From Candidatus Saccharimonadota bacterium (GTDB lineage Bacteria > Patescibacteriota > Saccharimonadia > Saccharimonadales > Saccharimonadaceae), in assembly GCA_905372495.1 (NCBI GenBank), contig CAJPPG010000001.1, forward strand, positions 1 through 63,840: a stretch of DNA of 63,840 nt, given 5' to 3'. Positions 1 to 12,000 of this stretch are shown one piece after another. A program made the translations under genes and the position numbers. Under the pieces are notes generated by a model. The model searched no databases and had not been told where the DNA came from. It saw only the letters and a program-made list of their open reading frames with translations. How positions within the stretch are numbered: position 1 is the stretch's first letter; each line of letters starts with the position of its first letter.

Positions 1-1
1 T

Positions 2-922
2 CAGTTCTCGGAAGGGGCAAAAACTCATCTTCAAAATGCTTCGATCAATACTCTAGCCGAATGGCGTGATCAGTTTAGGGAAATCTATAAAGACCAAGAT
101 GAGGAGTTTAGAAGTTCTATTCATCCAATTTTTGTTTCTCGTATGCCAAAGCGCAAAGGTATAGGCAGTTTACATGATGATACAATCCGTTCACCAAAAG
201 GTATTTTAATTGATGAAAAAACTGGCATTATCTCGGCCAATCCAAATCGTAGTTCATTCATTCGTAAGAGGTTGCAAGATGTTAAAATTGCAGATTTGGA
301 AAATTCTATCCTAAAACAAAGTGATAAGGTATTATATCAGCAGTTGAAAAGTCTTCTTGAAGCCAATGGTGATGATCCTAAAAAAGCGTTCAAGGAACCT
401 GTCTATAAGAATAATGTTAAGTTCGATAAGAACGGGCATCCACTTTCTCCAGTTACAACAATCAAGGTCAATGACGATAAGCGTGTAAAATCCGGCATTT
501 TGCTTAACCATGGCACTCAGTTTGTGAATAATGGTCCTGGTTCTATGGTAAGAGTAGATGTCTATCAGAAGGATGTAAATGGGGAAAAGAAGTTATTTTA
601 TGTGCCAATCTATACACATCAAGTCCGTAGGGGATCAAATCGCATCCTTCCAACCACCTGCGGCTATGATTTTGTCGACAATACTTTCACCAAACTCTGC
701 TCAGTTTATCCTAATGATTATCTAATTATGAAAAAAGGCGATGAAGTATTACAAGGGTATTATATTAAATATGCAATCTCAACGTCCCAAATTACGTATA
801 TCTCAAATATATTACCAGGAAGTAAGGATACTGAAATAACGACAGGACGCGCACTCTCTAGTCTATATCGTTTCGACATTTCGGTTCTCGGCGACAATTA
901 TCCTTGGGAAAGATTATACTAA
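2..922 (+). CDS. cas9: Cas9, type II-C, C-terminal part (RuvC-III, WED, PAM-interacting); 5' part outside window
   Basis: The frame is open from base 2. FVSRMPKRKGIGSLHDDTIRS is the typical Cas9 RuvC-III motif and MVRVDVY...FYVPIY is typical of the II-C C-terminus. It lies directly upstream of cas1-cas2-array. Confidence 0.93.
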   Translation, partial: QFSEGAKTHLQNASINTLAEWRDQFREIYKDQDEEFRSSIHPIFVSRMPKRKGIGSLHDDTIRSPKGILIDEKTGIISANPNRSSFIRKRLQDVKIADLENSILKQSDKVLYQQLKSLLEANGDDPKKAFKEPVYKNNVKFDKNGHPLSPVTTIKVNDDKRVKSGILLNHGTQFVNNGPGSMVRVDVYQKDVNGEKKLFYVPIYTHQVRRGSNRILPTTCGYDFVDNTFTKLCSVYPNDYLIMKKGDEVLQGYYIKYAISTSQITYISNILPGSKDTEITTGRALSSLYRFDISVLGDNYPWERLY

Positions 923-928
923 AATATC

Positions 929-1822
929 ATGGCTTGGCGTACGGTTTATTTAGAGCAACAAACAAAACTTTGGCTAAGTCGGAATAATCTGTGTTTTTCT
1001 CATGACGAAGCAGAGTTGTCTGTTCCGATTGAAGATATTGATACCTTAGTAATTGATAATCACGGCACAAAAATTACCACAAATCTCATCAATAGTCTCG
1101 CCAATCAAGATGTAGCTATTATAATATGTGATTCTTCGCATCTACCAAGTACAGTGATTTTGCCCTACGCGAAACATTCACGCCAGGCCAAGATTTCTAG
1201 TGATCAGTTAAAAATGCGTCAACCAATCAGAAAGCAGCTCTGGCAGAAGAATATTATTCAGAAAATTCTTAATCAGGCAGAGGTCTTAAAGAAATTTAGT
1301 CTAGAACCCTCGGAACTGATTGAGCTATCTAAGCTTGTTAAATCTGGTGACACCTCAAACTGCGAGGCGGTTGCCGCAAGAATTTATTTTAATCAACTAC
1401 TTAGTGATTCGACTAGGCGTCAGCCAACCTGGTATAATTCCGCTCTTGATTATGGATATAGTATAGTGCGAAGTTGTATTGCTAGGAGTGTAGCTTCGCA
1501 TGGCCTAATCGCCTCGTTAGGAATCTTTCATCACAACGAGCTGAATAATTTCAATCTAGTGGACGATCTTATTGAATGCTATCGTCCTTTCGTTGATCTT
1601 TATGTTTTGAAGACAGTTCACTTGCGACATATTGGAGAAGAATCTGACGAAATTCTAACAAAAGACGATCGAGTCCTACTGACACAAGTTATCAACGAAA
1701 ATGTCAGAATTCGTAATTTGTCTTATTCCATAAAACACAGTATTGATATTACAGTAGAAAGTTTTATTACTGCATTTCAAAATGAAGATTTTAATCTGTT
1801 TGAACTTCCGAAATTTTGCTGA
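929..1822 (+). CDS. cas1: CRISPR-associated endonuclease Cas1 (type II)
   Basis: MAWRTV start, VPIEDI, SGDTSNCEAVAARIYF, NSALDYGYSIVR, LGIFHHNELNNFNLVDDLIECYRPFVD motifs. Confidence 0.96.
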   Translation: MAWRTVYLEQQTKLWLSRNNLCFSHDEAELSVPIEDIDTLVIDNHGTKITTNLINSLANQDVAIIICDSSHLPSTVILPYAKHSRQAKISSDQLKMRQPIRKQLWQKNIIQKILNQAEVLKKFSLEPSELIELSKLVKSGDTSNCEAVAARIYFNQLLSDSTRRQPTWYNSALDYGYSIVRSCIARSVASHGLIASLGIFHHNELNNFNLVDDLIECYRPFVDLYVLKTVHLRHIGEESDEILTKDDRVLLTQVINENVRIRNLSYSIKHSIDITVESFITAFQNEDFNLFELPKFC

Positions 1823-1853
1823 TTAATAATTTTTTGGGTGGGAGAAAGAAAAT

Positions 1854-2180
1854 ATGAGTAGTTATAATTTTATGCGAGCTCTAGTCTTATTCGATCTACC
1901 AACTGATACTAAACTTAATCGAGGAAATGCTACGCGGTTCCGAAACTATCTATTGAACGACGGATTTACGATGCTGCAATACAGTATTTATAGCCGACTC
2001 TGTCCAGATCGCGATAATGCAAATACTCACCTTGAGCGAGTAAAAAAGCATGCTCCACATGAAGGGTCTATTCGTATGTTGATGTTGACTGAGAACCAGT
2101 TCACTAATATGGAGGTGATTTGTGGCAAGAAAACTGAGCAAGAGGAATATATTAGCAACGAACAGATGCTCTTATTTTGA
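1854..2180 (+). CDS. cas2: CRISPR-associated endoribonuclease Cas2
   Basis: MRALVLFDLP...FRNYLLNDGFTMLQYSIYSR; follows cas1. Confidence 0.96.
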   Translation: MSSYNFMRALVLFDLPTDTKLNRGNATRFRNYLLNDGFTMLQYSIYSRLCPDRDNANTHLERVKKHAPHEGSIRMLMLTENQFTNMEVICGKKTEQEEYISNEQMLLF

Positions 2181-2271
2181 ATTAGAAAATAAACGTAAAT
2201 ACTATAAAAATTAGTTTTAAATGCGCAGCTCTCTAATAAAGAAGATAAAAATAAAAATGCTTAACCAACAA

Positions 2272-2299
2272 AAAATCTTCCATTAACAGGGAAGATTTT
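2272..2299 (-). terminator. Intrinsic terminator for the minus-strand CRISPR transcript (possibly bidirectional)
   Basis: Inverted repeat AAAATCTTCC-N8-GGAAGATTTT with a longer U-tract on the minus strand, between cas2 and repeat 1. Confidence 0.65.
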
Positions 2300-2318
2300 C
2301 TGTAAGTAAAATTGTAGT

Positions 2319-3014
2319 ATTATACTACTATCGAAATTATTAGGGGACTATAACGAGCTGTGGTATAATCTATTCAGAACCACCATTATACTACTATCGA
2401 AATTATTAGGGGACTATAACATAGTTTGCAACTTTATTTAATCTGAGTAAATTATACTACTATCGAAATTATTAGGGGACTATAACCTAAGGCTTCGTCT
2501 GTAGTCATTAGCCCACATTATACTACTATCGAAATTATTAGGGGACTATAACCAATCAGTATCACGGACTTAATGCTAGCAGATTATACTACTATCGAAA
2601 TTATTAGGGGACTATAACTTAAAAGAGCAAGAGGAGCTAAACTGGGACATTATACTACTATCGAAATTATTAGGGGACTATAACAGTCTGCCCTGCCACG
2701 TTAGCATAGGCTTTATTATACTACTATCGAAATTATTAGGGGACTATAACAACGAAGTATCAGCTATGATTGAAAACGCCATTATACTACTATCGAAATT
2801 ATTAGGGGACTATAACTTTCCTCCCTAGACTTGCCGAAATAGCTTCATTATACTACTATCGAAATTATTAGGGGACTATAACTAGCTTCTTGAAGTAGGG
2901 AAGAAACGACTCATTATACTACTATCGAAATTATTAGGGGACTATAACCTTCAGGATTTACTTAACCGCCGTGGCCGAATTATACTACTATCGAAATTAT
3001 TAGGGGACTATAAC
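2319..3014 (-). CRISPR. Type II-C CRISPR array: 11 identical 36-bp repeats and 10 spacers of 30 bp
   Basis: ATTATACTACTATCGAAATTATTAGGGGACTATAAC recurs every 66 bp from 2319 to 2979. The minus strand reads GTTATAGTCCCC...GTAGTATAAT, ending in a -10 box as in Neisseria-type II-C repeats. No csn2 or cas4 is present. Confidence 0.98.
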
Positions 3015-3162
3015 CTTGTTTATCAGTGATGTTTTCGTACACCTTTGTCATTACGTTTTCTTGATTATCTAAACCAGCTTTTGAGCGTCGTTCTAGACCT
3101 TCCGTGCGAGAGTATCTACTTAATACGTTGTATGTTCCGTCTAAGTTTTTACGTATTAGCAT
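2980..3162 (-). CDS. Small phage-like hypothetical ORF, apparently truncated by and reading into the last CRISPR repeat
   Basis: MLIRKNLDGTYNVLSRYSRTEG...ITDKQ, then repeat-derived GYSPLIISIVV. Its start overlaps the stop of the upstream ORF by 14 nt. Confidence 0.4.
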   Translation of the reverse strand: MLIRKNLDGTYNVLSRYSRTEGLERRSKAGLDNQENVMTKVYENITDKQGYSPLIISIVV

Positions 3163-3301
3163 TGGCTAATCTCGCGCCCTTCACCATACTCGCATTTAAA
3201 CGCGCTATCATTAGTGCCTTTTCCACTAGCGGTAGTGCGGGGCTGAAGTCTTTTATTGTGTCGCTAAAATGACACTGGTATGTCTGACTCTGTAAATTCA
3301 T
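3149..3301 (-). CDS. 50-aa phage-like hypothetical ORF (below the ORF-track cut-off)
   Basis: Manual translation: MNLQSQTYQCHFSDTIKDFSPALPLVEKALMIARLNASMVKGARLANANT*. It overlaps the start of the next ORF. Confidence 0.35.
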   Translation of the reverse strand: MNLQSQTYQCHFSDTIKDFSPALPLVEKALMIARLNASMVKGARLANANT

Positions 3302-3445
3302 TGCCGTACCTATCAATCATTCGTTCGCCTAGTTTCATTTTGACATTGTCAGCGCCTTGTGATATATTGGAGTCGTAACTCCCACCGACTCGGGCTATTC
3401 GGCTCGACTAGGGAGCTTTCTTTTATGTCATTTGTTGCTGGGTGA

Positions 3446-3628
3446 CTACAGTAGTGCTTGTGCAATTTCTAGTTTATCTGGATCACCATTTTGAGTAATA
3501 AGATAACGGGCATACCTAGATAGCTCAAAATTTATTAACTCTCTCTTTGCTCCACTACCTACAGTGATCATTTTTTCCACCTGGCGAAAATGATCGTTTA
3601 TGTTGTAATATTTTGTTATAACCTCCTT
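3446..3628 (-). pseudogene. dinD: Internal fragment of DNA-damage-inducible protein D (BRO-like N-terminal region)
   Basis: Manual translation KEVITKYYNINDHFRQVEKMITVGSGAKRELINFELSRYARYLITQNGDPDKLEIAQALL* matches the DinD signature DHF...KM..GSG..R......LSRYACYLI.QNGDP.K.EIA. It lacks the N-terminus and stops early. Confidence 0.8.
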
Positions 3629-4643
3629 ACACTACCACCTCAAACTCCGCTCCATGTCCCTCGCTACTTCGAAGCACAATCTTATACCCCTGTCTTTCTG
3701 CCAAATTCTTCGCAATCGCCAGTCCCAGCCCATGACTCGTCTTATCTTCTGTTCTCGTCCTCGCCGTGTCCACTTGATAAAATCTCTCAAAAATCCGTTT
3801 CTGATCTTCTTTCTTCACCCCCACTCCATTATCTTTCACGCTAAACACCACATTCTTTCCACGTCGCACCGCGCGCAGATACACCATCGAATCTCCCGAA
3901 TATTTCATTGCATTGTCCAAAAAAACCGTGAGGATCTGTTCAAGAGTCTTTTTCGCCACCACTGTCGTCTTGTCCTTTCCGACATTCATCTCCAGCTCAA
4001 TCTCCACTCCGCTTTTTCTTGCCACTGGTAATAATTTCTCACGCAGGTCTGTCATAAAGTCGGCGATAACAATCGTCTCCCCACTTTCACGGTCGTTATT
4101 CTCCCGCGCCACATCCAACATCGAAGTCGTCAGTTCCTTCATTCTCAAAATCTCTTCAATATTCTTCGCGATCACCTCGCGTGCCTTCTCTTCCGGTAAA
4201 TTCTTCTTTCTCATCGCCACCTCATTTCTGATTAGCATCGCCGTCAGTGGTGTTTTTAATTCATGGCTCGCATCAAAAATAAACTGCGTCTGCTTCATCA
4301 TCGCTCGCTCAATCGGCGCCAGTGTCAATCTTGCCAGGCTGCGGCTCACAAAAATCCCAATCAGAAATATTCCAAGATTAAATCCCACCAGGGAATAAAT
4401 AATCATCACGCGCGTCGTATTATCACGACTCTCCAACCTTTTTCTAAAGATCTTTTCGAACGTGTGTTCCTCAAGTCCCGACACTACCACACTTACATTA
4501 GAATATTCATCCTCATTAGAAACCAGCGGCCGATTCAAGCTCGCCGTAGACAATAAATAAATAATTCCAGTAAAGATCAACGACAGCGCCATAATTACAA
4601 CCAAATAGCTCAGCGCTAAGCGGTTCACTTCGGATTTTTTCAT
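3627..4643 (-). CDS. Two-component sensor histidine kinase (2 TM, HisKA, HATPase)
   Basis: DASHELKTPL H-box, LDNAMKYS N-box, VKDNGVG, IFERFYQVD, GLGLAIAK. Confidence 0.95.
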   Translation of the reverse strand: MKKSEVNRLALSYLVVIMALSLIFTGIIYLLSTASLNRPLVSNEDEYSNVSVVVSGLEEHTFEKIFRKRLESRDNTTRVMIIYSLVGFNLGIFLIGIFVSRSLARLTLAPIERAMMKQTQFIFDASHELKTPLTAMLIRNEVAMRKKNLPEEKAREVIAKNIEEILRMKELTTSMLDVARENNDRESGETIVIADFMTDLREKLLPVARKSGVEIELEMNVGKDKTTVVAKKTLEQILTVFLDNAMKYSGDSMVYLRAVRRGKNVVFSVKDNGVGVKKEDQKRIFERFYQVDTARTRTEDKTSHGLGLAIAKNLAERQGYKIVLRSSEGHGAEFEVVV

Positions 4644-5323
4644 TGTTCTGACTTTCCGCCTACAATCTTATAGCCAAATCCAGGCACGGTCTGGATCAAT
4701 TTTTGCTTATAAGGTTTATCAATCTTCTTTCGCAAAAACATAATAAATAATTCCACATTATTCGGCAACACGTCCGCGTCAAAATCCCAAACGTTCGAAA
4801 TAATTTTCTCTTTCGACAAAACCTTGCCCTCGTTTCGCATCAAATATTCTAACACCGCGTATTCCTTGGCAGTCAGCTTAATCTCGTCTCCCGCTCGCGA
4901 GACGCTCTTAGTGCTGGGATCAAGTACAAGATCCGCCACACGTAAAACTTCCTCTAGCTTCTGGGCCGGCCTCCTCAGGATTGCCCGCATGTGCGCCAGT
5001 AGTACATCAAAGTTAAATGGTTTTGCCAGATAATCATCCGCCCCATAATCGAGTCCCCGTACCACATCTTGCGACTGCCCTCTCGCTGTCAGCATGAGAA
5101 TCGGCGTAGTATTCTTTTCTGCTCGCAATTTCTGACAAACCTCGAATCCATTCATTGAAGGTAACATCACGTCAAGAATAATCAAATCATATTCTTCCGA
5201 CATCGCCGTGTGGTAACCATCCTCGCCGTCAAAGCAAGTATCCACTGCATACGATTCGTCCTCCAGCCCCTCCTTTAGTGCTTCGCTGATCTCTTTGTCA
5301 TCTTCAATAATTAAAATTTTCAT
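4640..5323 (-). CDS. OmpR/PhoB-family response regulator
   Basis: MKILIIEDD, DLIILDVMLP, GADDYLAKPF, LTAKEY, IQTVPGFGY; 4-bp overlap with the kinase. Confidence 0.96.
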   Translation of the reverse strand: MKILIIEDDKEISEALKEGLEDESYAVDTCFDGEDGYHTAMSEEYDLIILDVMLPSMNGFEVCQKLRAEKNTTPILMLTARGQSQDVVRGLDYGADDYLAKPFNFDVLLAHMRAILRRPAQKLEEVLRVADLVLDPSTKSVSRAGDEIKLTAKEYAVLEYLMRNEGKVLSKEKIISNVWDFDADVLPNNVELFIMFLRKKIDKPYKQKLIQTVPGFGYKIVGGKSEQ

Positions 5324-5337
5324 AATATAATTTCAGT

Positions 5338-5712
5338 TTAATAGGCGAAAGTTATAGCCTCGGGCCACATCGTATTCACCAACTTCTTACCTTGGCTGGT
5401 TACGCTTACTATAATTTTACCATAGGTCTGCTGAATGACTGTGAGCAGACCCTTGGACTTAAGCTCCGTTAGTACATTCATGGTCACTTTCTTTGGCATC
5501 CCCGCCTGATCCACGATACTGTCCACATCGTCTACCCCATCTTCGTACACCTGCTGCAAAATAAGAGCCTCATTTACCGACAAATCCATCTGTTTATTTT
5601 TCTTGAACTTATTAGTTTTTCGATTCTTATTTTTCATGGTTTTCTCCTTCTTTGAAATTTTTCTAACTAAAATTTCATCATCTTCGTATTGGTTAACATC
5701 ATAATTATTCAT
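5338..5712 (-). CDS. Small winged-helix DNA-binding protein (alternative start at 5637)
   Basis: LSVNEALILQQV...VLTELKSKGLL...VSVTSQGKK wHTH pattern. SD-like sequences precede both candidate starts. Confidence 0.55.
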   Translation of the reverse strand: MNNYDVNQYEDDEILVRKISKKEKTMKNKNRKTNKFKKNKQMDLSVNEALILQQVYEDGVDDVDSIVDQAGMPKKVTMNVLTELKSKGLLTVIQQTYGKIIVSVTSQGKKLVNTMWPEAITFAY

Positions 5713-5739
5713 TCTATTCCTTTCGCTTATGTTGCTTAT

Positions 5740-5772
5740 AGTTTATTAGGATGTTCTTTAAAATCGCTTTAA
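5740..5772 (-). promoter_or_regulatory. Candidate OmpR-family binding site (TTAAAG-N5-TTAAAG) 10 nt upstream of a TAAACT -10 box
   Basis: Perfect direct repeat on the minus strand (5772-5767 and 5761-5756) in the -35 position of the wHTH-RR-HK operon. Confidence 0.5.
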
Positions 5773-5798
5773 GACTCTAAAAGATGTATAATTAATCT

Positions 5799-7277
5799 AT
5801 GAAACAAGAGAAAACCGTTAAAAAATCGAGACCACTTTTATCCTTTTTTCAGCTTCTCGCTGCCTTGTCCAGTCTCGCCATGCTCTATTTTTTATACCAA
5901 GCTCAAATCCTGCCGATTCGCCTTTTTGGCTTTATCGTTATCTTCTATATTCTCTTAGTTGTCCTTTTGATCATCATTAGTCGAAAGATTATCCTGCTCG
6001 CCATTCTTTTAATCTTGGATATTCTTCTTAATATTGTACTTGCTTTTGTGTTTTATAAATATAACGGCTATCTTTCTCAGATTGGCAAAAATGAAACTTA
6101 CCAGGAGAAATATAGCCTTATTACGCTCGCCGCCTCTCCTCTTGCCGAAACTGGCCAGGGTGAGATCATCCGTATCGGCATCCTAAGTAGTGATCCTTAT
6201 AAGGAAACCGTCGAGCAATATCTACAGGCTGACGCCAGTTCCCGTGAGGGGCTACTTGCGAAATCTCTCGCGCCATCTGACTATCTTGGCTTCACTGACA
6301 CTCTCTCACTCATCTCTGCACTCTTAAACCAAACTAATGCTAGTGATGCTTCTTCCGTTAGAACTATCTTTCTTTCAAACGGTAATCTTGAATCTCTCAA
6401 AGATAACAATCAGGAAATTTGGAATAAGCTGCACGTTCTTCAAGAAGTATCTATAAGTGTTACTCCAAAAACCATCGAGACCACCAAAAACACTTCTCTT
6501 GATGCTCCGTTTATAGTTTATATTAGCGGCATTGATAACCGAGATCATACCTTGCCTTATGCTGCTCGCTCGGATGTGAATCTAATTCTCGTCTTTAATC
6601 CCGCCAGACATCAGATTCTCGTGCTTAATACTCCGCGTGACTTCTACGTGCCTCTCGCCATGAATGGACAGAATGATAAACTCACTCACGCCGGTCTTTA
6701 TGGCGTAAACGAATCTATTCATACTCTCGAAAAATTCTATGATATCAAAATTAATTACTACGCACGCATTAATTTTGATGGCACCTCCTCCATTATTGAT
6801 CAGCTCGGTGGTGTTGATATCACGCTTCCTTACGCTATTAATACCTACCATGGCCACCGCTCATACAGCCCAGGCACTTATCACTTAAACGGTGCAGAGG
6901 CTCTCGATATAGCCAGGGAACGAGTGTCGATTAGTTGGGCTGGTGGTGACCGCGAACGTGGTCGTAATCAAGAAAAAATCTTGGCCGCCCTTATCTCCAA
7001 GTCTCAACACGATCCGAATATTCTCGGCAAAGTTGATCAAATCTTTGCTTCAATTGCCAAAAATATCCAGACCAATTTCACTAGTGATGATCTAAAATAT
7101 CTCGTTCAAAGACAGCTTACCAGTCCTGCCAAATGGCAAACTGAACTCATTGATGTTGATGGTAAGGCCGATATCACCTCCACCTTCACCTATCAAGAAC
7201 CAAAACACTTTGTCTGGCATCCTTATCCAGAGTCCGTCGATCGCGCCAAAGCTAAACTGCAAGAGTATCTCAAATAG
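5799..7277 (+). CDS. LCP (LytR-CpsA-Psr) family protein, CpsA-like
   Basis: Three N-terminal TMs; YISGID, RSDVN, TPRDFYV, DKLTHAGLYG, GDRERGRNQ motifs. Confidence 0.92.
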   Translation: MKQEKTVKKSRPLLSFFQLLAALSSLAMLYFLYQAQILPIRLFGFIVIFYILLVVLLIIISRKIILLAILLILDILLNIVLAFVFYKYNGYLSQIGKNETYQEKYSLITLAASPLAETGQGEIIRIGILSSDPYKETVEQYLQADASSREGLLAKSLAPSDYLGFTDTLSLISALLNQTNASDASSVRTIFLSNGNLESLKDNNQEIWNKLHVLQEVSISVTPKTIETTKNTSLDAPFIVYISGIDNRDHTLPYAARSDVNLILVFNPARHQILVLNTPRDFYVPLAMNGQNDKLTHAGLYGVNESIHTLEKFYDIKINYYARINFDGTSSIIDQLGGVDITLPYAINTYHGHRSYSPGTYHLNGAEALDIARERVSISWAGGDRERGRNQEKILAALISKSQHDPNILGKVDQIFASIAKNIQTNFTSDDLKYLVQRQLTSPAKWQTELIDVDGKADITSTFTYQEPKHFVWHPYPESVDRAKAKLQEYLK

Positions 7278-7280
7278 CCC

Positions 7281-7835
7281 ATGTACGATTTTCTTCAGCG
7301 TCATAAGAGACCTCTCCTTTTATTGCTCCTCGTTTTACAGATGACTCTCATTTTTGTGATGTCCTCCTTTGGCTCAGATTCTTCCAATGCCCAGAGTAAT
7401 CAAATCATTCAGGTTCTTCATCAGGTTTTTCCAAACCTCTCAAACGATCATTCATTCTTTGGCGCGAGCAATCTGACTCTTGTTGTTCGTAAGACCGCTC
7501 ATTTCACCGAGTATGCCATCCTCGGACTGCTCTTCTTTCTTGTCTACCGCGCCTATTTTGCAAAACCCTCTAGTACAAAACCTTCTAGTGTAAAACCCTC
7601 GAATACAAAACTCTCTAATGCAAAGTTCTCAGATGCAAAGCTCCTTCTCTTTGCCCTATGCTCAAGTTTTCTTTATGCTTGCACGGACGAGCTACATCAA
7701 CTCTTCGTTTCAGGTCGCAGCGGACAGTTCACCGATGTGCTCATCGATACTCTCGGGGCTCTTTTTGGCTGCCTCTTAGTAATGATTATTAGGCGCCTAA
7801 GAAAGGCTTGGCGAGCTCGTCGCCATTTGCAGTAA
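7281..7835 (+). CDS. VanZ family membrane protein
   Basis: VRKTAHFTEYAILG, YACTDELHQLFVSGR, DVLIDTLGA. Confidence 0.9.
   Translation: MYDFLQRHKRPLLLLLLVLQMTLIFVMSSFGSDSSNAQSNQIIQVLHQVFPNLSNDHSFFGASNLTLVVRKTAHFTEYAILGLLFFLVYRAYFAKPSSTKPSSVKPSNTKLSNAKFSDAKLLLFALCSSFLYACTDELHQLFVSGRSGQFTDVLIDTLGALFGCLLVMIIRRLRKAWRARRHLQ
7561..7643 (+). repeat. Degenerate 15-bp tandem repeat (about 5.5 units) within vanZ
   Basis: Encodes KPSST-KPSSV-KPSNT-KLSNA-KFSDA-KL. Confidence 0.8.
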
Positions 7836-8532
7836 TCTTGCGATATTCGGTCTCGCCGATTAATTTAATTATTTTTTTCTCAGCCTTCTCAAATTTCAAA
7901 AACATTGAGCCTTCTGTACGATGAATATCTGTACCTAAATAACTCACCAGACGGTTTTTTAGTAAGAACTTTACTGTCTTCTTTGTCTTGGCTCCGTATT
8001 GTCCAACAATACTGCCATAATTAGACTGTAATTTTACCCCTAATTTAACAATTTCAAAGATGGCTTCCTTCTTTTTTTGGATAAATAAATAACGTTCAGG
8101 GTGTGCAAGCACCGGCACAAGATCTTTTGCTTTTAACTCAAATATGATATCACGAAGATAGGAAACTTCCGCATAGAATGGCAGCTCAAACAGCACATGC
8201 TGATGTTTCTTCCTGCTATTTAGTTCTCCGCCAAAACAGGAAGCCTTGCCCTTGACTAAATAATCCACCATTTTTGGATCAATGTAAATTTCATTACCAG
8301 GCATCAACTTTAGTTTAATACCGGCCTTATTAAGTTCAGCCTGAAGCTTCTCGCGTAGTTGATTTTTAGTCTGATTGTCAGCCGCCTGTGGACTGTCGGC
8401 GATGTAATGTGAAGTACAAAATACCCCATTAAACCCTAGTCCCACCAGCCTCCTCGCCATCTTTACACTTTCTTCGATGGACCCGCTGCCATCGTCAATT
8501 CCAGGTAGAATATGTAAGTGTAAATCAATCAT
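7789..8532 (-). CDS. CpsB/CapC PHP-family tyrosine-protein phosphatase
   Basis: MIDLHLHILPGIDDG, TSHY, PGNEI, LAHPERY, GTDIH. Confidence 0.93.
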   Translation of the reverse strand: MIDLHLHILPGIDDGSGSIEESVKMARRLVGLGFNGVFCTSHYIADSPQAADNQTKNQLREKLQAELNKAGIKLKLMPGNEIYIDPKMVDYLVKGKASCFGGELNSRKKHQHVLFELPFYAEVSYLRDIIFELKAKDLVPVLAHPERYLFIQKKKEAIFEIVKLGVKLQSNYGSIVGQYGAKTKKTVKFLLKNRLVSYLGTDIHRTEGSMFLKFEKAEKKIIKLIGETEYRKITANGDELAKPFLGA

Positions 8533-8540
8533 AGAGTGAC

Positions 8541-10241
8541 CTAATTATAATATTTATAATAATTATCGCCACGACGCTCGTCAACTGTGCGGTTTAAGAC
8601 CACGCCAGAGATTTTAACTTCGATTGACTCAAGCGCCTTCTTTGAATTTTGGAGATCTTCAATCGTAGTCATATTAGCAGCACTAACAAGTACTAAGCGA
8701 TCAGTTTTCTTAGCCAAGATTAATGAATCGGAAAGACCATCAATTGGCGTACCGTCAAGAATTACATAATCAAATTTTTGCTTTACTTTCTCAAGTAATT
8801 CTTCCATGATTGCAGAATCGAGCAATTCGCTTGGGTTTGGTGGTACTACGCCACGTGTAATAATTGAAAGATTTTTAACGGTTGTCTTTTGTAGATATTC
8901 ACGATATTCACCTAACTTACTCTCAGCTAAAAGATTTGATAAGCCTTCTTTGTTGGATAAGCCAAAAATCTCGTGCTGACGGCCAAGACGCATGTCACAG
9001 TCGACTAGGAGCACTTTTTTCTTGGTCTTTGCAAAGGCCACGGCTAGGTTTGAAGCGATAAAGCTTTTACCTTCGTTTGGCGTGGAACTGGTGATCAAAA
9101 CTGCGTTTGAGTCTTTCTTGTTTAGGGAGAAGTATAGACTGGTACGAATAGTACGAAAATCTTCACTGACCTTGGATTTTGGATTATCTCTCAGTACTAG
9201 CTCAGAATCCTCGTCTAGCAATTCTTCATTAAACTCATCGTTTTCAGCCTCATCTGCCTTCACCTCTGCAGCTAACTTTTCTTGTAGAGCCTTCTCCTCA
9301 GCAATAATTTTGCGACCAACCGCCTTAATTTCCACCACTGGCTTCACTTCTGTCTTGGTTATATGTTCTGCCTGGGCTGCTTCAGCACCCGTCTCCTCGC
9401 CATCCTGATAATCAACGCCAAGTTCCTCGTTATTAACTTTTTCTTGTTTCTCAAGTTTTGCGGCTAGTTTCTCTGCCTTCTTGGCCTCTTTTTGCTGCTC
9501 TTTCTCTAATTTTGCAGCCAGTTTAGCTTCTAATTTCGCAGCCTTTTCAGCGTGTTTCTTGCGTTGTTGTTTTTGTTTCTCGGTCTCAAGTTTACGGATT
9601 TTACCATAAATAGGAAGTTTGAAGAGTTGTTCAATTTGTTCAGTAGTCTTAATTGTGCGGTCAATATAGAACATTAAGAAAATTACGGCAGTTGCCAGCA
9701 CAATACCGGCCGCTGCATAAATAGCCTCTTGCTTAACCAGGTCCACATTATGTGGTTTCTGTGGCTCCACTGCACGGTCAAGTACATTTACACTCTTATC
9801 ATTGTAAATCTGGCCAATTTCGTTTGTGAAAGTGTCGGCAATCGTGTTAGCAAGGGAATAGCTGTGGTTTTTATCTCGGTCCACCACCGAAATGCTAATA
9901 ATTTCTGTATCCTTCAAAGATGCAACGGTCACTTTCTTTACCAACTGCTCATAAGTGTCATCAATTTGCATTTCGTTCTTCACGCGATCAAGCACGCGAT
10001 GTGATTTTACGACTTCCGTATAAGTATCAATCAAATTCTTGTTTGCATTGATTTCACTCTGCACGGTGTTCTTTGATTTGTCAGAGCTTAAGATTACTGT
10101 TGCCTGTGCCTTATATTCTGGCTTTAATAAAAATACTGAATAGATTGTTCCAGCTGAAACCACAAAAAGTACCATTACGATAAATAAAATCAGGTGCTTC
10201 TTGAAATAGCTGAGCAAATCCCTTAAATTAATCTCTTCCAT
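8541..10241 (-). CDS. Fused CpsC (Wzz-like) and CpsD BY-kinase with a long charged linker
   Basis: MEEINLRDL N-terminus with 2 TMs; SEDFRTIRT, Walker A STPNEGKS, LVDCDMR, PPNPSELL, VILDGTP; C-terminal tyrosine cluster NYYKYYN. Confidence 0.92.
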   Translation of the reverse strand: MEEINLRDLLSYFKKHLILFIVMVLFVVSAGTIYSVFLLKPEYKAQATVILSSDKSKNTVQSEINANKNLIDTYTEVVKSHRVLDRVKNEMQIDDTYEQLVKKVTVASLKDTEIISISVVDRDKNHSYSLANTIADTFTNEIGQIYNDKSVNVLDRAVEPQKPHNVDLVKQEAIYAAAGIVLATAVIFLMFYIDRTIKTTEQIEQLFKLPIYGKIRKLETEKQKQQRKKHAEKAAKLEAKLAAKLEKEQQKEAKKAEKLAAKLEKQEKVNNEELGVDYQDGEETGAEAAQAEHITKTEVKPVVEIKAVGRKIIAEEKALQEKLAAEVKADEAENDEFNEELLDEDSELVLRDNPKSKVSEDFRTIRTSLYFSLNKKDSNAVLITSSTPNEGKSFIASNLAVAFAKTKKKVLLVDCDMRLGRQHEIFGLSNKEGLSNLLAESKLGEYREYLQKTTVKNLSIITRGVVPPNPSELLDSAIMEELLEKVKQKFDYVILDGTPIDGLSDSLILAKKTDRLVLVSAANMTTIEDLQNSKKALESIEVKISGVVLNRTVDERRGDNYYKYYN

Positions 10242-10379
10242 ACGCGGTATATTATAACATATTTATGGGTACTCTGTAAAGACTAACTACACCAAACTGC
10301 CAATATTGCAAAAACATAAGCCTTATCTGTTGAGGCTTCATAGTTCGCGAACTTACTCCTACTCCCACCCCTGTAAAAC

Positions 10380-10408
10380 TTGCATTTTTTAAACATTTCT
10401 GCTAAAAT
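10380..10408 (+). promoter_or_regulatory. Sigma70 promoter TTGCAT-N17-TAAAAT with extended TG
   Basis: Near-consensus hexamers, 17-bp spacing and TGn before the -10 box. Confidence 0.6.
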
Positions 10409-10413
10409 CTCAG

Positions 10414-10682
10414 GTATTGCTCTTTTCCACAAGTCATTCTAGAGTATTTTGACTAACGAGGTGGGTGGTCGGTCGTGAGCAATAGAATTAAACGGAGTAA
10501 GAAATTTACTTATGCGTAGACTTAAACGTGAATCTTCGCGCAAAAAGTCGAAAATTCCTCCTGCCCCTTGGCAAGAGTTCATTATTTACTAATCCGAAGG
10601 GTCAAACTTCATAAAGACGATGTCTTTATCTGTGAATAGTAAGTAAGGAAAATACCACTTCAATCGAGGTGGTATTTTTTTA
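10414..10682 (+). ncRNA. Candidate structured sRNA, or mRNA for a 26-aa peptide at 10512-10592
   Basis: Bounded by a promoter and a terminator; almost the whole length forms nested stems. Confidence 0.45.
10649..10682 (+). terminator. Intrinsic terminator
   Basis: AAAATACCACTTC-aatc-GAGGTGGTATTTT followed by a T run. Confidence 0.75.
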
Positions 10683-10788
10683 TTCAATGTTTTAATTATA
10701 GTAGAGCTTGCGTTATGTAGTAAATATTATGCAATATAAAAACTATCCAAAATTGGATAAGTACTTTTAGAAAGGTTGGTGACTATGA

Positions 10789-12000
10789 ATGCCAAAAAAT
10801 TCAAGTCTCGACTCCCTGAAATCCAGAGAGCAAGATGCATTTCATCGTAAACAGTTAGTATTTAAGGATTATCTTGATGCTAAAAATCGTGCTGACATTA
10901 CATATAGTGCAATGCAAGCTGCCCGCCAAGAGTGTCGTACTGCAAGAGAAGAAATGAATCGTGAATATGAGGATATGTAGCGCTCTAGTAATAACTTCCG
11001 TGAAGTTTGGGATGAATACGGTAAAATCCGTGATATAAACAACGCCCACATTGAATCGCTTCGCCAGGAAGCGGAATATGAACATCGAGAGATGCAAGAT
11101 TGTTTCGATAGAGCTGGAAACTGCTATCATTACGGCGATAAGTCCGAAGCCCCTTACTGGTCTTCTCAGGGGCACGATCATAAATATCGTCGTGACAATA
11201 TTAATGAAGAAGTGAGTAGGCTTTGTCAGGAGGTGAAAACCGCAAGACAGAATGCTGAATGGCGAGCCCCTAAAACCGATAGCTCTGCATTTCAAAGGGC
11301 GAAGGAGTCCTTTAATGATGCTAAGTCTCGTCAAAAATCTGCAGAAGCGGAGTTTGATAGATTAAAAACCGAACGCGACCAATACAAAGCCAAATTCGAT
11401 TCCATACAGGCAGAGTATCTCCGTCTGAAGGAAGAATTTCAGGAAAAATTGGCCCAAGTCAAACAGGATAATCAGCAAGAACGCGATAAAATCCTTGATA
11501 AGGCTGGTGTAAGTTGGTCTAACCGTGAGGATGCGAAAATCGTCAAGAAGGCAGACGGTACTACTCAGATTTATTATGGTGGTCTCTTGTCTGGCGATGG
11601 ACTAGGTCATGGACATGCTGCGCTTGATCAGTTTGATGATAAAACCTACGATCGTGGCGCCTTTGAGAAACACGGGAGTCAGAACTATATTAATAATAGT
11701 AAAGAATCAAAGAATTATAGTCGTAATGTCCACGAAGAGCAGGAGAGTCAAAAACTTATCAAAAAACAATATGGATTTTTTGATAATAAGCCGGCTAAGG
11801 TTTATCCAGATAAACGTCAAAAACATGAGGGTTGGTTGAATATTTTGTATTCTGATAAAGGAGACTTTACTCGTGAAAGCGACCATGGACATATCCTCAT
11901 AAATGAAGCTGGCAGTGTAATTATTTGGCGTGATCAGGGTCAAAAACACGGTGACGAGTATCTTATTGATGGGTCAAAAGACGATCACACGAAAATTTGA
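10789..12000 (+). pseudogene. Coiled-coil, DUF1771-like protein with two HGH-motif segments, interrupted by one in-frame TAG (10978-10980)
   Basis: ORFs 10789 and 11092 are in the same frame and the interval after the TAG is open (RSSNNFREVWDEYGK...). CFDRAGNCYHYGDKSEAPYWSSQGH resembles DUF1771. Confidence 0.7.

Follow-up and report, generated by a model that had tools for sequence, protein, structure and literature searches.

A relic of a phage polyvalent-protein gene abuts the outermost repeat of a type II-C CRISPR array in a Saccharimonadota genome

How does a piece of a phage gene come to lie directly against the outermost repeat of a CRISPR array, and could it serve that array as a guide? 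The question is raised by a locus of Candidatus Saccharimonadota bacterium (assembly GCA_905372495.1), in contig CAJPPG010000001.1, whose positions 1 to 63,840 are the window analyzed here. The genome, G000, is a 0.69-Mb assembly in 43 contigs, and the window is the start of contig C1. Same-genus relatives carry G numbers and fetched loci carry L numbers (L022 and L055 come from G380, L056 from G715:C2 and L032 from G552:C1). A first-pass annotation, made from the sequence alone, had described the array as ending in a perfect repeat fused to phage-like coding DNA. The features at issue, with the array given in the sense of its CRISPR RNAs (crRNAs), are as follows.

2319–3014, minus strand (crRNA sense): type II-C CRISPR array, 11 repeats of 36 nt and 10 spacers of 30 nt
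2979–3014, minus strand: outermost repeat, read as the first transcribed, oldest, "extra" repeat; unmutated
3015–3044, minus strand: would-be guide of an extraneous crRNA (ecrRNA), coinciding with the final 30 nt of the phage-gene relic
3015–3435, minus strand: pseudogene fragment (~420 nt) of a phage "large polyvalent protein", comprising linker and ParB-like domain
3378–3417, no strand: hairpin inside the relic, encoding a conserved linker peptide; a T-run follows on the plus strand

The description as phage-like coding DNA was borne out, since 3435–3015 is homologous to the gene of a phage giant protein. In translation the fragment aligns to amino acids (aa) ~1023–1162 of the 2378-aa protein P0010, with tblastn E-values of 1e-41 to P0010 and 1e-35 to the protein of G465; the identity to P0010 is 84% (16/19 residues) for 3432–3376, 58% for 3377–3177 and 71% for 3171–3016. 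Compared to the phage proteins, the fragment is spread over three frames, with two frameshifts and two in-frame stops. It represents ~6% of the gene length, ~140 of ~2,370 codons, and has no intact reading frame; the GGHSR motif, which is invariant in the family, reads SRYSR. No other part of the giant gene was found elsewhere in the G000 genome.

Among 368 other genomes of the genus, the DNA from 3015 to ~3435 has a match in G465 only (G465:C1:214690–215001; 69% nt identity over 314 nt, E 7e-26). The G465 site lies within an open reading frame (ORF) of 2371 aa, which matches LPD38, PBECR3 (below cut-off) and, at aa 1065–1190, a ParB-like PHROG; a tyrosine integrase adjoins the giant ORF, and weak XhlA-like and collagen-like matches, both below cut-off, are located nearby. 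A search of 5.8 billion proteins gave 73 homologues from 372 candidates, most of them 2,200–2,400 aa in length and two of them named Caudoviricetes, and eight IMG/VR contigs of 24–40 kb encode relatives of the giant protein. In the JGI metagenome contigs, the window peptide found 0 loci and alignment A1 found 8, the best with 73% aa identity; among the GTDB genome contigs only that of G465 was found. Searching 3015–3461 as DNA against phage records and plasmids gave no match, and the stretch from 3015 to ~3435 has no relative in 60 related genomes save one match of 28 nt.

The concept of large polyvalent proteins of phages and conjugative elements reportedly goes back to a paper by Iyer and colleagues. 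Set beside such proteins (LPD38, PF18857; PBECR3, PF18812; ParB-like PHROG 1033), the relic corresponds to the linker and the ParB-like part; the family members of 2,200–2,400 aa are encoded on the 24–40-kb viral contigs and in a Saccharibacteria prophage, whereas the relic is a fragment that has lost GGHSR. By its sequence, therefore, 3015–3435 is a relic that no longer functions, derived from the ParB-like module of a giant polyvalent protein that Saccharibacteria siphophages encode. As a separate observation, 27 of the 28 nt at 3055–3082 are identical to G022:C9:201457–201484, which lies inside a chromosomal 481-aa ORF of another species with an orthologue on contig C4 of G000; the match is too long to dismiss.

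Two overlapping minus-strand ORFs abutting the repeat had been described as small genes and as anti-CRISPR (Acr) or regulator candidates. The ORFs exist. The first, 3316/3301–3149, has 55 aa from a TTG, with the ATG at 3301 internal; the second, 3162–2980, has 60 aa, overlaps the first by 14 nt and, as claimed, ends inside the repeat, its stop being at 2982–2980. The second is the in-frame tail of the relic, starting at an internal Met conserved in some homologues, and the first is out of frame with the phage protein. Since the two are different frames of one decayed gene fragment, they are not genes. None of the five window ORFs searched (5/5) has a Pfam match at E ≤ 1, the sole PHROG match on the two small ORFs has an E-value of 0.008, and neither has a relative in IMG/VR. 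Genes of the Acr, anti-CRISPR-associated (Aca) or regulator type were therefore rejected, the ORFs being pseudogene frames without family matches of their own; they are not to be annotated as genes nor pursued as anti-CRISPRs.

The GC hairpin noted near 3378–3416 is present, at 3378–3417, and its stability is not exceptional: its folding energy gives z = -1.48 for both strands and is matched by 16 and 19 of 200 shuffles. In a simple scan, 3401–3417 followed by TTCTTTT is a plus-strand terminator-like site, one of 2 sites found against 1.3 expected in shuffles. The hairpin DNA is coding in the phage homologues; compared to L069, a phage homologue on a metagenome locus, 49 of 57 positions are identical in 3378–3432 and 176 of 279 in 3100–3377. 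Palindromic DNA encodes the linker of the giant protein (aa ~1016–1041) in two variants of unrelated sequence, that of the G000 window and that of G715. On the plus strand, 3340–3425 contains a near-consensus promoter-like TTGACA, 17 nt and TATATT, with TG, located 10 nt ahead of the hairpin and T-run; it would give a tiny plus-strand RNA and may be a coding coincidence, and the TTGACA and TG-extended box are also present in L069.

Where does the relic end? In nucleotide alignments, the similarity to G465 and L069 runs to ...AAACAAG and ends at the first base of the repeat, and the last 7 nt ahead of the repeat are identical to the phage homologues; the suspected stop of the homology exactly at 3015 is thus what the alignments give. 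A random breakpoint would fall on this border with a chance of ~1–2 in 66, estimated from the 66-nt period. The homology stops at the exact border, which suggests that the fragment arrived by recombination linked to the border of a spacer or repeat. The far end of the relic is at ~3432–3435, and beyond it the following features are encountered.

3424–3461, no strand: short flank common to G552 only, with 92% identity to G552:C1:1365–1402
3455–3619, minus strand: relic of DinD (DNA damage-inducible protein D), 165 nt, 55 internal codons
3627–4643, minus strand: histidine kinase gene, 338-aa ORF, in the orientation of the crRNA strand, upstream of the array

The DinD relic shares 71% aa identity with aa 54–108 of the 279-aa protein of G380, a DinD equivalog of 292.9 bits to NF008573 (cut-off 242) whose gene has its 3′ end 53 nt past the last repeat. 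G380, G715 and G724 carry the dinD gene at this position, and G552 has the relic in the same truncated form. G000 lacks the 3′ two-thirds of dinD that G380, G715 and G724 retain, and 3015–3454 has no homology to the missing part. The histidine kinase gene is syntenic in G380, G552, G715 and G724, and the homology of G380 to the window resumes at 3462–3619 and then from 3626. A cas locus delivered into a prophage, one of the origins first proposed, does not agree with these flanks, since the DinD relic and the kinase gene are chromosomal and syntenic in G380, G715 and G552. Nor is the relic a giant spacer in the strict sense: a local alignment scan found no repeat-like sequence in 3015–12000, and the relic has no repeat beyond it.

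G552 shares with G000 the DinD relic and the next 38 nt, and diverges from it at 3424–3427 (breakpoint range 3424–3432). Beyond this point G552 (L032 1403–4626) contains 2.6 kb of unrelated DNA, then the region of the trans-activating crRNA (tracrRNA) and only the first ~112 codons of cas9. Within the 2.6-kb replacement lie a 72-aa ORF and a Clp-fold SDH-protease-like ORF whose match to NF047768 is far below cut-off; the replacement has no homology to the G465 prophage or to G000. In G000 and G552, two sister lineages, the interval was thus remodelled independently. In the array-distal flank of G715 (L056), 10367–10469 is 90% identical over ~100 nt to 3911–4010 upstream of its own tracrRNA; the repeated stretch has a terminator-like hairpin and has counterparts at L022 2609–2695 and L032 4683–4767. 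The tracr-cas9-cas1-cas2-array module of G715 is therefore bracketed by a direct repeat, cassette-like.

Are phages of this family targets of the arrays? Spacers 2 and 3 of G721 and spacer 9 of G715 match the G465 prophage, and phages of the polyvalent-gene family are therefore real targets of these arrays. In G000 itself, spacer 9 matches the G380 prophage at 30/30 positions and spacer 8 matches the same prophage at 27/30; the two (window 2817–2912) match adjoining head-tail connector genes of this siphophage-like prophage, at L055 (G380:C9) 7515–7544 and 8507–8536. Within the 15 kb examined, the G380 prophage does not carry the giant gene, and the spacers have no match in 8 more phage loci. 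Spacer 5 of G000 (2619–2633) and spacer 1 of G380 (L022 7914–7928) overlap by 14–15 nt in opposite orientation, which suggests from sequence a shared target region, absent from the loci examined.

The explanation that we favour, and hold to be moderately probable as a whole, is a phage-gene relic at a II-C extra repeat that arrived by border-tied recombination and was trimmed by a later deletion. Most likely, a former spacer would have recombined, by homology, with its protospacer in the polyvalent gene of the phage, perhaps at a phage end cut by Cas9; what remained of the phage, together with the outer array and the 3′ part of dinD, would have been lost in a later deletion. Such a course fits the junction, the missing part of dinD and the targeting of the phage family at the level of the genus. 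Recombination between a phage protospacer and a CRISPR spacer was reportedly observed by Varble et al. in 2019 in the laboratory, in staphylococci, and linked to transduction of CRISPR loci. It would yield a repeat, 30 nt of spacer and contiguous phage DNA, like the junction at 3014/3015. Different from that case, G000 holds a decayed genomic scar, no matching spacer, phage or protospacer adjacent motif (PAM) was recovered, and a deletion must be assumed.

Several observations weigh against the explanation by border-tied recombination. It requires a large deletion as a second event. In phage records, plasmids, IMG/VR, JGI and GTDB, no source phage was found above ~70% nt or 73% aa identity, and for this reason 3015–3044 cannot be shown to be a former spacer. 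In the source phage, a PAM would be expected after ...GATAAACAAG. The PAM-side flank in six close homologues of the relic reads C[CAT]CTACA[GA]G; it is unlike the flanks of the two G000 protospacers, AAGATAAG and TAATGTAT, and unlike TGGNGNA, to which the flanks of the four protospacer matches of G715 and G721 conform, so that no PAM-like flank was recognized in these homologues, none of them the source phage. The tracrRNA and the 5′ two thirds of cas9, in the region beyond the contig start, are absent from the G000 assembly. In the distal flank of G715, 340 nt from the array and between array and dinD, an 18-aa match to P0009 (flank 340–393, L056 ~10604–10657; 15/18 aa, E 5e-4) corresponds to the linker position of another variant of the gene, and at the sequence level it hints at an older or recurrent association of the phage gene with the locus. 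A simple scan of 3015–3460 found no minus-strand promoter-like site. Finally, G552 and G000 diverge within ~10 nt of the far end of the relic, which fits an insertion in one step at least as well.

In such a one-step aberrant integration, the ~420-nt phage fragment would have been joined at the outer border of the terminal repeat, without repeat duplication, by Cas1-Cas2 (half-site or ectopic) or by end-joining, between the repeat and the old flank from 3436 onward; loosely, this is the over-long prespacer that the first-pass annotation had listed among the origins. A single event would explain both ends of the relic, the border is exact and cas1 and cas2 are intact. The G000/G552 breakpoint at 3424–3432 coincides with the far end of the relic, as if the shared 38-nt flank had once touched the array. 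Ectopic or half-site integration by Cas1-Cas2, as described for types II-A and I-E, likewise leaves a joint exactly at the repeat border, where the integrase cuts. However, integrases of the Cas1-Cas2 type measure prespacer length, we know of no natural example of an over-long, repeat-less integration product, there is no second repeat, and the ancestral state, a repeat followed by the 38-nt flank, is observed in no genome. The site of acquisition in II-C arrays is moreover the other array end, according to PMC12080349. We consider one-step integration rather unlikely.

The locus as a whole is eroding, which speaks for ordinary illegitimate recombination. Here a prophage or phage fragment between the array and dinD would have been trimmed by unrelated deletions, with the match to the border arising by chance. 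dinD is cut at both ends; G552 has lost everything from ~codon 112 of cas9 through the array up to the 2.6-kb replacement, and G721 and G724 keep degenerate repeats only. The tiny G715 match to the same gene also lies between array and dinD, and the relic is old enough to have gathered its frameshifts and stops. Against these points, a random endpoint would hit the border at an estimated ~1/66 to 2/66, and the course would need two or three separate deletions at the least; it seems to us rather unlikely.

Could the junction be a product of the assembly? A metagenome assembler may have continued from a real spacer into a phage of the same sample that has a matching protospacer, giving a chimeric contig. 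The assembly is in 43 contigs and C1 opens inside cas9, and the sole read run found (DNA, 9% of sampled words) covers 3547–4384, not the junction; no RNA run containing the stretch was found. On the other hand, both sides are syntenic in sister genomes, so that two chimeric joins would be needed; the overlap at the far join is at most ~10 nt, and no other phage part is present in the assembly. The fragment is furthermore a decayed pseudogene rather than an active phage gene. Because a pseudogene is flanked by syntenic DNA on both sides, we regard a chimeric assembly as very improbable.

Which repeat is the first to be transcribed? In G380, the plus strand upstream of cas9 contains a TTGACA/TATAAT promoter, then an anti-repeat with a bulge and a hairpin with T-run, which together make up a tracrRNA; a remnant is also present in G552. 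Judged from the strand of the G380 tracrRNA, the crRNAs would be on the minus strand, running toward cas2. A tracrRNA within 3015–3460 was considered and rejected, since the anti-repeat of G380 is upstream of cas9 and window 1–12000 contains no anti-repeat-like sequence outside the array. Window 1–8000 has 0 matches in Rfam at E ≤ 1. The repeats end in TATAAT (crRNA sense) in G000 and in all variants of the complete arrays (7/9 of the others), with no TG-extended box and no -35; the degenerate repeat remnants of G724 and G721 vary at the TATAAT end.

In II-C arrays, according to PMC13187072 and PMC12080349, repeats carry promoters and new spacers are acquired at the transcription-downstream repeat; the oldest repeat is the first one, the "extra" repeat, from which any ecrRNA derives. 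By analogy, the array of G000 would be transcribed on the minus strand from a -10 box within each repeat, and new spacers would enter at its cas2 end. Read on the minus strand, 2979–3014 is the "extra" repeat and 3044–3015 is the would-be guide of an ecrRNA. This agrees with the earlier statement that type II crRNAs are spacer-then-repeat, which places 3044–3015 in guide position once the G380 tracrRNA has set the strand. For array polarity we also sought shared spacers among the 133 spacers of 10 arrays, and found 0 at ≤ 5 mismatches.

The outermost repeat is perfect, as first noted, being identical to the other 10. In four of nine other arrays the cas-distal repeats are degenerate (G715, with 1, 2 and 5 mismatches, G474, G023 and G721); the G035 array runs off the contig end and its terminal repeat is not seen. 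The perfection of the distal repeat had been taken as an oddity, which it is not: G380, G748 and G505 also have a perfect outermost repeat, and 40% of II-C systems in PMC12080349 have an extra repeat free of mutations, so that a perfect outermost repeat is by itself not unusual.

Could the relic then supply a guide? The concept of an ecrRNA has already been published for II-C arrays (Feussner et al. 2025, PMC12080349). The systems with an extra repeat described in that paper and in Migur et al. 2026 (PMC13187072) share with G000 the cas9-cas1-cas2-array layout, the direction of the crRNAs toward the cas genes that is predicted here, the TATAAT at the repeat 3′ end and an oldest repeat that is cas-distal and transcription-upstream, and their ecrRNA guide derives from DNA just outside the array, as it would here. 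Compared to the systems covered there, the extra repeat of G000 is unmutated, and its would-be guide is phage-derived and not arbitrary host DNA. Of the three published brakes, namely a mutated repeat, a helix that traps the guide and an upstream terminator on the crRNA strand, none was found at the extra repeat of G000; the same holds for 71/260 II-C systems in PMC12080349. Folding of the guide 3044–3015 gives no strong trapping helix, only one of 5 bp (z +1 to +1.5), and a simple scan found no minus-strand terminator-like site between the kinase gene and the array.

From the DNA, an ecrRNA could be made from 3044–3015, the prerequisites at this level being an intact extra repeat and an unstructured guide. 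The extra repeat 2979–3014 would have no repeat-borne promoter upstream of it, and only transcription from outside, such as read-through from the kinase gene, could make an ecrRNA of 3044–3015. By hand count the guide is identical to L069 at 21/30 positions, and for this reason it would not target the known relatives. One may go further and suppose that the fragment was captured at the outer edge of the extra repeat in one step dependent on CRISPR, and kept as a permanent eleventh guide against the polyvalent-protein gene of phages that infect the genus, in line with the eleventh guide first imagined at 3044–3015. The capture would then be a Cas9-cut phage end copied via the cognate spacer, or a Cas1-Cas2 half-reaction, and the ecrRNA would be co-opted for immunity instead of being suppressed, as a non-erasable guide. 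We find this quite unlikely.

The cas genes and the other end of the array are arranged as follows.

2–922, plus strand: 3′ end of cas9, last 306 codons, open frame; the contig begins within the gene
929–1822, plus strand: cas1, intact ORF, 90% and 95% aa identity to Cas1 of G380 and G715, respectively
1854–2180, plus strand: cas2, intact ORF, 92% and 96% aa identity to Cas2 of G380 and G715, respectively
2181–2318, no strand: cas2-proximal flank of the array ("leader" by II-C analogy), with a hairpin at ~2271–2300

The Cas9 fragment matches TIGR01865 at model positions 783–1029 with 55.5 bits, under the cut-off of 100 because the gene is partial, and shares 79% and 87% aa identity with Cas9 of G380 and G715, respectively. 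No further piece of Cas9 was found in the 43-contig assembly. The contig start inside cas9 may be an assembly break or reflect strain heterogeneity at a variable locus, and with the tracrRNA and two thirds of cas9 missing from the assembly, the function of the system in G000 is unproven. The array begins 138 nt past cas2, and all 11/11 repeats (36 nt) are identical; G380 has the identical repeat in 31 copies with the same gene order. The full locus of G380 contains cas9 (1139 aa), cas1 and cas2 only. With only these three genes, no csn2 or cas4, and 36-nt repeats alongside, the locus is assigned to type II-C.

The cas2-side flank 2181–2318 is almost identical in G380, G715 and G724, and the pairing of the hairpin at ~2271–2300 is kept with different sequences in G748, G035, G474, G023 and G505; flank and hairpin are thus kept in 8 other real arrays, and the flank of G721 was not seen, its first match being a tracrRNA anti-repeat. 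The hairpin between cas2 and the array, with an A-run and a T-run at its sides, is likely a bidirectional terminator or a leader element, as judged from its sequence. Elsewhere in the window, at 7559–7618, a 15-nt unit is present in four head-to-tail copies.

The locus adds a member to type II-C, for which the logic of the ecrRNA is already in print; what is new, at the level of the DNA, is a natural and exact junction of a repeat with a phage gene, in which the guide position of the ecrRNA is phage-derived. Should the junction prove real and specific to the border, a natural genome would here bear the scar of a phage recombining with a CRISPR array, a process which to our knowledge has been shown in the laboratory only. 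The host belongs to the Saccharibacteria, ultra-small episymbionts whose phage biology is barely known. G000 would moreover provide a concrete II-C case of a phage-derived ecrRNA guide with no published suppressing feature, in which the co-option of an ecrRNA becomes testable.

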